Virus record (IMG/VR): IMGVR_UViG_3300038556_000008
Coordinates: 1 to 38,961 of that record
Strand: one strand, 5' to 3'
DNA: 38,961 bases
Origin: a virus
Taxonomy: Duplodnaviria; Caudoviricetes
Shown here: one piece after another, positions 1,221 to 38,961 of the stretch
Numbering within the stretch: the first letter of the stretch is position 1
Layout: every line of letters starts with the position of its first letter
Program-made: the position numbers and the translations under genes
Notes under the pieces: generated by a model
Database searches by the model: none
Seen by the model: only the letters and a program-made list of their open reading frames with translations
What the model was told of the DNA's origin: nothing

Positions 1221-1766
1221 CTACTCGTCCAGCAAGTATGAACGCACCAGGTTGACGACGTTGTCTCGGCCGGCCTGGGACATGCCCAGGAATCGCCGAG
1301 CAGGGATGTCGCCCCAGGGGATCGGAAAGCTGCCATTGCGGCTTGCGTAGATCCCGAAACCGAGTTCGCCGGACTTGGCGCCGAAGTGGAACGTGCCGGC
1401 GTAGACCATAGGGCTACCGATGCCCACCGCGTCCTCCCCCTGCACCTGGTAGTTGATCGTTGTACCCAGCATGCGCGTCTCGCCAGTACCTGGCTTCTTG
1501 TTTGCGAGCTTGGCCTGGCTACCTTTGGTCAGCGTACCGTCTTTCTTGCGGGCGAAGAGCGCGCTGTACCGTGCCATCGTGACGGGCTTGTTGGGCGCCC
1601 AGGCATTGCCATCTGGATCGGTGGCCGTCGCAAAGCGCTGTTTCGTCTCCTGGGCCTGGTCTTCGCCGATTTCCTTGAGAACGGGCAGCAGGTTGCGGCT
1701 GCGTTCGACCAGGCCGTGCAGGTAGTCCAGACCGCTGCGGTCGGTCAGCGTGATGATTTGCGGCAT
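1221..1766 (-). CDS. Mu gpG-like virion morphogenesis protein
   Basis: RF...DPDGNAWAP, VGIGSPMVYAGTFHFG and IPARRFLG motifs; lies after MuF. Confidence 0.88.
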   Translation of the reverse strand: MPQIITLTDRSGLDYLHGLVERSRNLLPVLKEIGEDQAQETKQRFATATDPDGNAWAPNKPVTMARYSALFARKKDGTLTKGSQAKLANKKPGTGETRMLGTTINYQVQGEDAVGIGSPMVYAGTFHFGAKSGELGFGIYASRNGSFPIPWGDIPARRFLGMSQAGRDNVVNLVRSYLLDE

Positions 1767-1786
1767 TTCGGCCCCTTCGGTAAAAT
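1758..1786 (+). promoter_or_regulatory. Putative sigma70 promoter for the small RNA at 1793
   Basis: TTGCGG (1758-1763), 17-bp spacer, TAAAAT (1781-1786). The expected +1 near 1793 coincides with the first base of the closing stem. Confidence 0.65.
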
Positions 1787-1792
1787 CTCACT

Positions 1793-1873
1793 GCCTTGCA
1801 CAGCATCAACCCCCGGGTCTTCAAACCCGGTCTCGTCCTCGGACGTTCTAGGTTGGGGGGTGCAAGGCTTTTT
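1793..1873 (+). ncRNA. Putative ~80-nt structured small RNA convergent with the MuF-nuclease gene
   Basis: 9-bp closing stem GCCTTGCAC (1793-1801)/GTGCAAGGC (1860-1868) followed by T5. Inner stem CAACC/GGTTG encloses hairpins CCGGGT-CTTCAA-ACCCGG and CGTC-CTCG-GACG. Upstream promoter present. Confidence 0.62.
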
Positions 1874-3060
1874 CATTGGCCGGTCTTGATCACCAAGCTG
1901 GTGAGCGACAGCGAGCGATTGCGCCGCCCCGACAGCACCTCCCATACAGCCCGGAACACCTCACCGTTGATCGTCTTGGTCGCCACCAGCGTGGCATTGC
2001 CGTGGCGTGAAGGGTTTCCAGCCCGCAACTGGTCGGGCTCGTTGAGCACGCTCTCAAGCAGCGCGAAATCCTCCGGCGACGCCGGGCGCTGTCCAGCGCC
2101 GTCGAAGCCATGCGATGACTGCACATGACGTGGTGCATCAGCTGGCAGCAGCGCTGTGTAGCCCCGGGCATCCACACCGATCAAGGGCGCGATCGCGTCG
2201 GGCTTTTCCACGAATCCCAGCCACAGGGGGTCTCGGCGCTGGCGATCACCCAGCACCTCGCGCACAAAGTCGGGCACCAGCTGCTCGGCATTGATGTAGC
2301 GATTGACGTCGCGCGACAGCGCCGTACTGATCGCAGGGGGGTAGTTGATCAGCTTGTCTTGCACGAAGCTGCGTAAATCGTCGTTGACCCGTGCGCCAGG
2401 CGCGTAGTCCCACCCTTCATCAATGCCCGCAGGGGCACCCGTGGCCGCATCGATGTCATCCCATCCGTCGGGCGGCTCGGTCGCATCGTCTGGGCCAGGT
2501 GTGGCAGCCGCAACCACGCTGCACTGGCAGCCCCAGCCGTTGGGGCCGAAATGCGTGTCCCAGAACGGGTGGTCATATCGGAGCGTGAGACGAATGTCAC
2601 CCCAGTGCTTATGCAGCGGCCGGGGATGTGACACGCTGTCGTTGTGCACATAGCGCCAGTAGGGCCGGCGCTTAAGTAGGTCGGGGTCCAGCAGCTGCGC
2701 GCGCCGGCCGGCTGCATAGGAGGCCGTGATGTTGGTGCGGTAGATCACCCGCGTGCGCCAAGCCTCGCCTGCCGCGCTGCCCTGGCCGGTCCAGCCGGTC
2801 CATCCGTGCTTGGCCACGATCTCTGCAAAAGTCTTGCGGAACTCTCCAATGGAGCCACCCTGCACGGCCTGCTCCACCGCAGTACGCAGATCTGCGAGCA
2901 GATCGGCTTTCATTGCGCCGGCCACCATGAACGCCCGATCGTGCGCCGCGCGCTGGATGTCGCGCCATGTTTCGCTGGGCAGGTTCAGCTTTTTGCGCAG
3001 GAAATCGATCTGCTCCGCGAACTGCTGGCGCACGCCGTCGACGGTGTTGTCATCAGGCAC
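1873..3060 (-). CDS. MuF (gpF-like) head morphogenesis protein with C-terminal putative BECR-fold (PBECR-like) RNase domain
   Basis: MuF motifs RAFMVAG, IYRTN, PRPLHKHW, PNGWGCQC and GWDYAPG. Extra ~130-aa C-terminal domain (RHVQSSHG...PEDF...LNEPD...KTING...VWEV...LSLTSLVIK). Likely GTG start at 3060 overlapping the portal stop. Confidence 0.85.
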   Translation of the reverse strand: MPDDNTVDGVRQQFAEQIDFLRKKLNLPSETWRDIQRAAHDRAFMVAGAMKADLLADLRTAVEQAVQGGSIGEFRKTFAEIVAKHGWTGWTGQGSAAGEAWRTRVIYRTNITASYAAGRRAQLLDPDLLKRRPYWRYVHNDSVSHPRPLHKHWGDIRLTLRYDHPFWDTHFGPNGWGCQCSVVAAATPGPDDATEPPDGWDDIDAATGAPAGIDEGWDYAPGARVNDDLRSFVQDKLINYPPAISTALSRDVNRYINAEQLVPDFVREVLGDRQRRDPLWLGFVEKPDAIAPLIGVDARGYTALLPADAPRHVQSSHGFDGAGQRPASPEDFALLESVLNEPDQLRAGNPSRHGNATLVATKTINGEVFRAVWEVLSGRRNRSLSLTSLVIKTGQ

Positions 3061-37847: not shown

Positions 37848-37992
37848 CTCGGGCTCCTAAAGTCGGTCGGACTCTAGATGCAAGCCCCGCAAGGTGCGAG
37901 TCCGGAGAACTGCGGACGTGCCCCGTGATGTAGCGGCCGGACGGCGCTGGTTTGCAATTTGTTTTCTCAGTGCGCAACACAGCGGATCATGC

Positions 37993-38035
37993 ATTTATTG
38001 CGCTGATGGCGGCGCATTTATCGCGGCGCGCTTCA
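37993..38035 (-). repeat. Right end: terminal TGAA (minus strand) plus two putative transposase-binding motifs GCGATAAATGC and GCAATAAATGC
   Basis: Cores at 38017-38022 and 37994-37999, offsets 14 and 37 from the end, the same as at the left end. Confidence 0.8.
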
Positions 38036-38041
38036 ATCTTG
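38036..38041 (+). repeat. Right copy of 6-bp target site duplication ATCTTG
   Basis: Matches 1062-1067. Confidence 0.92.
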
Positions 38042-38961
38042 GTGATGCCGGTGGAGGGGTCGATGACACGCTCGGCATGGGTGATGGCGATCGTGGCGGG
38101 CAGGCGCGCCGCCTTGGCCATGCGGGGCGGGGCGGCTTTGTGGCGGGTTGCGGTGCGGGGTGAAGATGCGGTCGATGGCACGTGCTGTGGCTCCTCTTTT
38201 GCGATGCGGCGCGCAGGCTTGTCCGTGCGCAGGCCCTGGAATACGGCGTGGCGGATGCGGCCGTCCGCGGTCCATTGCGCGAACGAGACTTCGGCCAGCA
38301 GGGTGGGGCGCACCCAGTGCACCTGGCTGCCAAGGCCCCGGGTGTCTGCCAGCGGGGATGTGCCGGTGGCCAGGCCGTCCAGGCGCTGGCGCAGGTCGGC
38401 CAGGGTGCGTGCGTTGAAACCCGTGCCGACCTTGCCGGCCGCGTGCAGCTGCCCGTCCTCGCCATGCACGGCGAGGACCAGGGCCCCCAGGCCGGTGCGC
38501 GAGCCCTGGGGATCGGTATAGCCGGCGATCACGAACTCCTGGCGGTGGCCGCACTTGAGCTTGATCCAGTCCATGCTGCGCCGCGAGACGTAGGCGCTGC
38601 CGCGCCGCTTGCCGATCACGCCCTCCAGGCCCAGCCGGCAGGCGGCGGCCATCAGGTCGGCGGGCGGGGCGTCAAAGGCCTGGCTGAACCGAACGCGGTC
38701 CGACGGCGCCTTGTGCAGCAGCTCCTGCAACCGCTGGCGGCGCTGTTCCACGGGCTGCTGGCGCAGGTCCTGGCCGTCGTGCCACAGCAGGTCGAAGGCG
38801 AAGAAGACCAGCAGGTCGGTGTGCTCGCCGTCGAAGGCATTTTGCAGGGCCTGGAAGTCGGGGCGGTCGTCGCTGTCCAGCATCAGCACCTCGCCGTCGA
38901 TCCAGCCTGTTTGCAAGGGCAGGGCCGCCAAGGCGCGGGCCAGGGCAGGCATTCTGGCGGT
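38036..38961 (-). pseudogene. ligD: ligD 5' fragment: ATP-dependent ligase and OB domains (start outside the window; now terminates at 37987 inside the prophage end)
   Basis: Ligase motifs WIDGEV, FFAFDLL, EGVIGK, WIKLK, GKVGTGF and RHAVFQGLRTDK, followed by the POL-start motif ITHAERVIDPSTGITK at the junction. Confidence 0.93.

Follow-up and report, generated by a model that had tools for sequence, protein, structure and literature searches.

A predicted small RNA encoded opposite the MuF stop of a transposable phage, a candidate inhibitor of a predicted virion-delivered PBECR-like RNase

How could a temperate phage with a putative RNase on a virion protein protect its own lysogen when no immunity protein gene follows the toxin? 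This question is raised by the virus record IMGVR_UViG_3300038556_000008 (Caudoviricetes), analyzed over a stretch of 38,961 nt (hereafter the window), in which the gene of the minor head protein MuF (gpF) carries a C-terminal extension and stops 106 bp before the start of the next gene, gpG (measured at the identical locus L001). An earlier note on this DNA had read the extension as a BECR-fold RNase and the gap as encoding, on the opposite strand, a self-promoted tRNA-mimic RNA in place of an immunity protein. The elements it listed, TTGCGG-N17-TAAAAT, a 9-bp stem, two hairpins, and a T5 run at the MuF stop, are all present at the positions given below. The joint presence and joint loss of the RNA and the intact domain in related loci indicate that the RNA serves the active enzyme, and, judged from sequence, it is fairly probable that the RNA is a type III-like, tRNA-derived inhibitor of the virion-delivered PBECR RNase, replacing an immunity protein.

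The RNA encoded opposite the MuF stop

The predicted RNA occurs among relatives in two circularly permuted forms, form A, closed by stem P1 as in the window, and form B, closed by P3. Its features in the window are as follows.

1758–1763, + strand: predicted −35 box TTGCGG, within the first codons of gpG; 3 of 6 positions match the consensus, and TTGC is kept in most form-A relatives
1781–1786, + strand: predicted −10 box TAAAAT, 17-nt spacer from the −35 box; a −10-like hexamer is found in 69 of 72 relatives
1793–1873, + strand: predicted small RNA, a three-way junction of permuted form A, both ends inferred (fold z −5.0, covariation, model R1)
1793–1801, + strand: 5' strand of P1, pairing with 1860–1868 in a perfect 9-bp stem; an internal hairpin or short loop in form B (fold, alignment)
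1802–1811, + strand: CAU side of the internal loop and 5' strand of P2, facing 1851–1859 (P2 3' strand, G-run); conserved in form B
1813–1830, + strand: P3 hairpin, where the permutation occurs; its loop varies, and in form B it becomes the closing stem (both alignments)
1834–1846, + strand: P4 hairpin (1834–1845) and the following U, the most conserved element, with 100% of cells paired in both forms
1869–1873, + strand: T5 run, possible 3' end, touching the MuF stop; kept in close relatives only

The stretch 1802–1811 together with 1851–1859 is a candidate protein-binding core. The + strand of 1793–1873 folds at −39 kcal/mol (z −5.0), with none of 200 shuffled sequences as stable, into a closing stem, an internal loop, a second stem, and two hairpins. 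The − strand of the same stretch is nearly as stable (z −4.8), so that folding alone is insufficient to assign the RNA strand. This near-equality speaks for a structure in the mRNA itself, such as a terminator, a processing site, or a self-cleavage target between MuF and gpG. That explanation is nevertheless very unlikely, since G-U cells outnumber A-C cells on the + strand by 81 to 9 in form A and 88 to 15 in form B, which identifies the + strand of the window as the RNA strand; moreover, the −10 box is conserved on that strand, and MuF genes without the RNase are followed by gpG with no such element between them. The −10-like hexamer stands on the strand opposite to the gene in 69 of the 72 relatives whose core is recognized by regular expression (regex), compared with 52 of 388 background windows inside the gene. 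A consensus scan of the window called neither a promoter nor a terminator at the RNA locus, the promoter being missed because its −35 box is weak. Model R1 scores the window RNA at 90.6 bits, with the near-identical L001 in its training set, and Rfam 15 gave no family at cut-off in the window or in 20 related loci. RNA-seq contigs (24 runs listed, 4 examined) comprise low-depth pieces that span the region and are uninformative as to strand, ends, or level.

A total of 97 loci yielded 77 distinct readable downstream regions. The core hairpin was recognized by regex in 72 of them, and four of the other five were matched by model R2, which had not been trained on those four loci, placing the RNA behind 76 of the 77 distinct relatives. 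By hand assignment, 43 of the 77 have form A and 34 have form B. In form A (24 aligned sequences), 95.6% of the cells are paired and 13 of 23 pairs are compensatory, compared with 22–48% in slid controls. In form B, the CCGG hairpin P3 is opened into both RNA ends and P1 becomes an inner hairpin or a loop of 6–7 nt; 85% of the cells are paired and 11 of 16 pairs are compensatory, with P4 paired at 100% and P2 at 90%, while P3 reaches only 65% in one register, a +1 slide scores close, and the helix is under-aligned. The form-B core contains an invariant A, with C, U, and GGG at least 90% kept and the G-U and G-C pairs each present in 28 of 30 sequences. Constant across the permutation are P4 (a small CG-U..ACGU hairpin), the U behind it, and a G-U/G.A/G-C motif. 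The loop of P3 varies in sequence among relatives, and the proposal that the CCGG hairpin mimics an anticodon arm had to be abandoned, as this hairpin is opened into the RNA ends in the 34 form-B relatives and is a dispensable permutation point. Form B is the form found with distant domains; a quick tree of 82 domains, with 41 of 78 forks open, implies seven changes between the forms and does not distinguish a single origin of form A from several. Whole minimum-free-energy z-scores of 110-nt windows failed to separate the classes.

A peptide was also considered as the product of the gap. A 43-codon frame (1745–1876, − strand) begins at an ATGA overlap with the MuF stop and could be an immunity peptide coupled to it, the fold being incidental; ATG frames of at least 30 codons run through the core in 35 of the 72 relatives, and phage B3 is annotated with a 32-aa open reading frame (ORF) at the same place. 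These frames, however, are split over three reading frames (19, 12, and 4 of the 35), the remaining 37 relatives have none, and the stems covary as RNA, which makes the peptide a highly improbable alternative. The absence of a frame-conserved ORF, such as the small downstream immunity ORF of MuF toxins, agrees with the earlier statement that the gap holds no credible immunity gene.

The RNase domain and its linkage with the RNA

The domain behind which the RNA lies has the following features.

1876–2280, − strand: PBECR3-like predicted RNase domain, 135 aa, BECR fold (Pfam PF18812, AlphaFold, structural matches)
2125–2127, − strand: His52 of the R-H-x4-H motif in the N-terminal helix, predicted to be catalytic; present without exception among 47 and among 29 aligned homologues (active-site rule of PMC5512222)
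1897–1902, − strand: Thr127-Ser128, predicted catalytic hydroxyl in the last strand; S/T is common, not invariant, among aligned homologues (PMC5512222)

The last 135 residues of MuF match Pfam PBECR3 (PF18812) with an E-value of 1.1e-5 and 25.8 bits, the family cut-off being 30 bits. A search with the profile of the window family (A6) recovers large proteins, and loci that have the same RNA do pass the PBECR3 cut-off. In the AlphaFold model (predicted local distance difference test, pLDDT, 93.6), helices are followed by a strand meander, giving the helix plus four- to five-stranded meander typical of the BECR fold. A wider structural search returned six matches with Z of at least 5, namely BrnT (3u97, Z 6.8, root-mean-square deviation 2.7, 76 aligned residues), a Salmonella toxin-antitoxin (TA) toxin (Z 6.6), three CdiA toxin domains (Z 5.9 for CdiA-CT 5i4q, 5.5, and 5.3), and RelE (2kc8, Z 5.2), with colicin D among the matches under Z 5. 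Middling as they are, these scores for the modeled structure converge on one fold, BECR. Several of the structural neighbors are tRNases. The active site of PBECR domains consists of a His and a Ser/Thr in the description available from PMC5512222; in the window domain and its aligned homologues His52 is invariant, Thr127/Ser128 are present, and the His motif is kept in 76 of the 77 distinct relatives. The domain is a predicted RNase with its catalytic motif intact, and the earlier assignment of the extension to PBECR-like BECR RNases is upheld at this level.

The linkage of RNA and domain was examined in MuF controls, the 80 best of 586 loci with a MuF N-terminus, which after removal of two cut loci and four copies left 74 distinct ones. 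Models R1 or R2 matched 28 of 28 members of the window family and, at E below 0.01, only one of the 46 others (L142). Where MuF has no C-terminal domain (13 genes), it abuts gpG in every case, with distances of −22 to 16 bp, and neither the gap nor the RNA is present. In one sister family, an intergenic element goes with the 13 aligned domains that keep the K..RH motif; the three that lost it show no RNA and distances of −4 to 7 bp, at 49–53% identity to a member with the RNA. Every measured MuF with an intact domain leaves a gap of at least 69 bp. Named phages follow the same rule. In Mu, whose PBECR copy is called inactive by Iyer et al. in the text available (PMC5512222), the domain is degenerate and overlaps gpG, with no gap or RNA, and in RS138 a frameshifted domain overlaps gpG; in phages B3 and AFS-2018a the domain is intact, and the gap of 123–124 bp contains a folded element as well as a −10 box on the antisense strand. 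Two of the checks proposed at the outset, structural conservation downstream of homologues and absence beside nuclease-less MuF, came out in favor of the pairing.

Some loci of the control set deserve separate mention. Behind one MuF-RNase gene, L142:2706–2877 holds two different RNAs in tandem, an element of its own family and an orphan PBECR3-type RNA, the latter a candidate cross-immunity element. In B3, ORF34 (L269:1384–1482), annotated as a 32-aa hypothetical protein, occupies the place of the antisense folded element and is possibly a shadow ORF. Three MuF proteins (L097, L100, and L103) end in an HExxH metallopeptidase-like domain, and no such RNA element was found behind these three genes; in L097, the stop is overlapped by an ORF of 82 codons, which may encode an immunity protein.

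The RNA is not confined to MuF genes. When viral contigs were scanned for its DNA motif, 44 loci were obtained, counting near-copies; in 38 the domain lies on the gene strand, no more than 600 nt upstream, and in no case on the opposite one. Among the other six, four resemble partial chance matches (three scored, 11–16 bits), one has only 221 nt of upstream sequence, and one is an orphan. Besides further MuF genes, the RNA accompanies a likely portal fusion and occurs in ORFs exceeding 800 codons, in which it and its promoter are written in frame directly behind the domain; 10 of 17 scanned stretches passed the PBECR3 cut-off. Among protein representatives, a peptide trace of the RNA core occurs within 45 aa behind the domain in 34 of 63 read-through domains vs 30 of 1457 background windows. 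In L211, two tandem domains each have their own RNA copy. The 401 sampled genomes contain 14 PBECR3 matches, of which seven have a model match directly behind them, one has a core recognized by eye, three belong to a His-less subfamily with other elements, two have none, and one is cut. Model R2 found 25 places in 151 genomes; of the 11 viewed, the top ones lie behind PBECR3 domains or their remnants, and most weak ones are chance-like. The RNA is tied to the PBECR domain rather than to the position of the MuF gene, and the system is wider than MuF.

Multiple and orphan copies of the RNA were also observed. Orphan copies persist in L142 and L243. At L243:1174–1870 (G463), a polyvalent gene begins with three cassettes of RNA and promoter, spaced by about 300 bp; by eye, the outer ones retain a remnant of the domain's last strand, like the orphan cassettes of polymorphic toxin loci. 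Two tandem RNA copies lie behind one PBECR3 domain inside a polyvalent ORF at L195:1190–1340. An RNA with a −10 box occurs at L220:1169–1236, with no PBECR domain within 600 nt and a sigma-70 region 4 gene nearby, and a partial match without the P4 hairpin lies near a PIN-like toxin gene in L244 (G456). In the isolated phages phiE131 (GP004, L222:2819–2930) and RC1 (L223:2292–2351), an RNA variant is located in the 3' end of the domain-bearing gene.

tRNA likeness, proposed mechanism, and alternatives

The tRNA-mimic part of the earlier proposal draws support from the sister families, many of which carry tRNA-like cloverleaves at the same place, and does not extend to the structure of the window RNA itself. 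A T-loop is found on the antisense strand at 10 loci of one sister family and 4 of another; when 11 sister copies are aligned, they share a cloverleaf consensus in which 14 of 24 pairs are compensatory, and a four-way cloverleaf is also the fold obtained for the AFS-2018a element. Among 20 related loci scanned with ARAGORN, one was classified as a tRNA, with an odd anticodon loop. Form B resembles by eye the sister cloverleaves minus the T arm. Models R1 and R2 gave no cross-match with the sister RNAs, and the profile comparison of the window family with the sister family was weak (probability 20%, E 0.001). The window-family and sister RNAs may share a common descent; tRNA mimicry by the window RNA is drawn by analogy from the sister families, because its own family has no T-loop. 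Other, different antisense elements stand directly behind the MuF stop in L080, L088, L128, L132, L235, and L241, which belong to other PBECR-like families.

If the RNA is an inhibitor, the following course of events may be proposed. The host-type promoter would fire in the lysogen and soon after DNA entry. MuF would be packaged and injected and would cut host RNA, probably tRNA. The conserved P4 and the G-U/G.A/G-C core could dock on the enzyme, while the variable arm would present no normal anticodon loop. As a tRNA-derived decoy, the RNA would thereby protect the lysogen and the lytic cell from the phage's own enzyme and from kin virions, and it may turn the injected enzyme off after a short burst. 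A broader version, which we put forward more tentatively and hold at somewhat less than even chances, is that PBECR RNases are paired family by family with tRNA-derived decoy RNAs, that domain, RNA, and promoter form one mobile cassette, also within giant ORFs, that orphan RNAs provide cross-immunity, and that the promoter acts as a timer ending the injected RNase's short attack on host RNA.

Several observations weigh against an inhibitor derived from tRNA. ARAGORN found no tRNA gene in the window, where the RNA is a three-way junction without a T-loop and not a four-way cloverleaf. The PBECR3 match of the window domain falls under the Pfam cut-off, Foldseek with the domain model gave nothing at E 0.001 or better, and the best structural Z, 6.8, is only middling. 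PBECR domains may not target host tRNA, according to Iyer et al. in the text available (PMC5512222). The related loci are not independent events, 6 of the 44 motif loci are without the domain, and L238 and L242, the two negative cases among the 14 PBECR3 matches of the sampled genomes, show no RNA core. By its position, the RNA is fully complementary to the late mRNA, which leaves room for antisense action, and linkage alone fails to separate an inhibitor from a cofactor.

Antisense action would resemble type I systems, with the RNA or convergent transcription pairing with or destabilizing the toxin mRNA and thus curbing leaky MuF-RNase. In its favor, the RNA and the toxin gene are convergent, the RNA touches the stop of that gene and falls within the ORF where the gene is polyvalent, and it disappears together with the toxin; type I systems with convergent 3' overlaps exist. 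Cis-antisense pairing, however, needs no conserved sequence, whereas the core is shared even between Comamonadaceae-type MuF genes and polyvalent genes whose domains can barely be aligned, and the RNA is specific to the RNase family, absent behind the three metallopeptidase MuF genes, and kept as orphan copies. Since the core survives permutation, is family-specific, and persists in orphans, recognition by a protein fits better than mRNA pairing, and we consider the antisense explanation unlikely.

To a similar degree, we regard as improbable that the domain and the RNA together form an active particle, packaged or assembled after entry, in which the RNA is a cofactor or guide for cutting a chosen RNA such as a host defense RNA. 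Such a particle would also account for the one-to-one pairing and the joint loss, the combination of a fixed core and variable arms is reminiscent of guide scaffolds, and mRNA or CRISPR RNA is suggested as a target of these domains in the available text of PMC5512222. The variable parts, however, are short stems or loops of 6–7 nt rather than free guides. The predicted promoter of the RNA is of the host type, whereas the protein is made late; with this promoter on the opposite strand, the RNA would be made while the late genes are silent and soon after entry, and an inhibitor therefore fits better than a cofactor. BECR enzymes of known structure are not known to need an RNA.

An RNA like C4 or CI, or its a1b1 target, might instead regulate another phage gene in trans. 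C4 RNA of P1 and P7 and CI RNA of P4 are tRNA-sized multi-stem phage immunity RNAs that act by base pairing on regulatory mRNA, and the − strand at 1810–1857 gives a weak match to Rfam c4-a1b1 (13.7 bits, E 0.86). This score compares with a gathering cut-off of 46.7 bits, no second site complementary to the hairpin was found in the window, where no second copy occurs at three mismatches, the matching hairpin is the variable permutation point, and the linkage is with the RNase domain; this role is extremely unlikely. The inhibitor thus remains the favored role for the RNA.

Genomic setting, known systems, and significance

The window represents a transposable temperate phage with transposase, transposition protein, terminase, portal, head, and tail genes, as annotated with Pfam and PHROG. 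Portal, MuF, and gpG are late genes on the − strand, two of which flank the RNA.

1221–1766, − strand: gpG, virion morphogenesis (neck) gene, next in the late operon (Pfam Phage_tail_S, E 6e-19; PHROG 26)
1873–3060, − strand: MuF (gpF), minor head protein gene with a C-terminal extension (Pfam Phage_Mu_F, E 1.2e-8; PHROG 220, minor head protein and DNA pilot; homologue lengths); its GTG start is inferred from 395-aa homologues

The closest named relatives of the MuF domain come from Paracidovorax, Acidovorax, and other Burkholderiales. The left end of the window encodes a LigD primase-polymerase domain (206–1150, − strand) and the right end an ATP-dependent ligase (37987–38952, − strand), and on this layout the prophage appears to be inserted within a host ligD gene.

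The protein is built like MuF polymorphic toxins, which join a MuF N-terminus to an exchangeable toxin domain at the C-terminus and are encoded in the head modules of temperate phages. In the available text of Jamet et al. (2017; PMC5576092), such toxins are described with protein immunity, whereas here an RNA gene lies downstream and there is no conserved ORF. The domain class, its contexts, and its active site are those of the PBECR domains of MuF, portal, and polyvalent proteins (PMC5512222). The main text of that article, as far as available, names no partner RNA or inhibitor and does not contain the terms "noncoding" or "small RNA"; the available text of a bioRxiv paper on PBECR (10.64898/2026.08.28.747851) likewise names no partner RNA, and "ncRNA" and "non-coding" do not occur in it.

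The layout is reminiscent of type III TA systems (ToxIN, CptIN, TenpIN, and, more loosely, AvcID and AbiF with its RNA), in which a non-coding RNA beside the toxin gene likely inhibits the protein by binding; type III antitoxin RNAs bind the toxin, according to the portion available of PMC13682666. In contrast to those systems, the toxin here has a BECR fold, not a ToxN-type fold, and is a virion component, and the RNA is present as a single copy behind the toxin gene on the opposite strand, often within the toxin ORF, and has a predicted promoter of its own. The covariation is explained without a pseudoknot. ToxIN carries a co-transcribed upstream repeat array on the same strand and in the same operon, and no such upstream same-strand repeats are present here.

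Two further groups of RNAs may be compared. Like the DUF3800-I to XI, drum, and skipping-rope motifs (Weinberg et al., 2017; PMC5737381, in the part available), several unlike RNAs are tied to one protein domain and often lie on the other strand, though the protein is a different one here and Rfam 15 gave no match at cut-off. The Y RNA YrlA of Salmonella is tRNA-like and was raised by its authors as a possible competitive inhibitor of an anticodon nuclease (PMC7790460, in the part available); unlike the present RNA, it belongs to a chromosomal RNA repair operon with Rsr and is unlinked to a nuclease gene, and the inhibitor role is only an idea there. The pairing of domain and RNA is unreported in the literature searched; the supplementary RNA-motif lists of PMC5737381, PMC10690425, and PMC8040213 lay outside the search and could hold it unnamed. 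If true, RNA-based immunity for polymorphic toxins would be without a described counterpart found.

PBECR domains occur in up to 26% of polyvalent proteins, and the available text of PMC5512222, from which this figure comes, gives no tested substrate or means of self-protection for them. An RNA partner behind nearly every intact domain would explain how these RNases are carried without an immunity protein, and the presence of the RNA predicts which PBECR domains are active. Phage B3, which is grown on a laboratory strain, carries a sister domain-RNA pair. If the proposed role is true, the range of RNA antitoxins would widen to BECR-fold toxins and to virion toxins that are injected, and nature would supply examples of tRNA-mimic inhibitors and of a circularly permuted small RNA.

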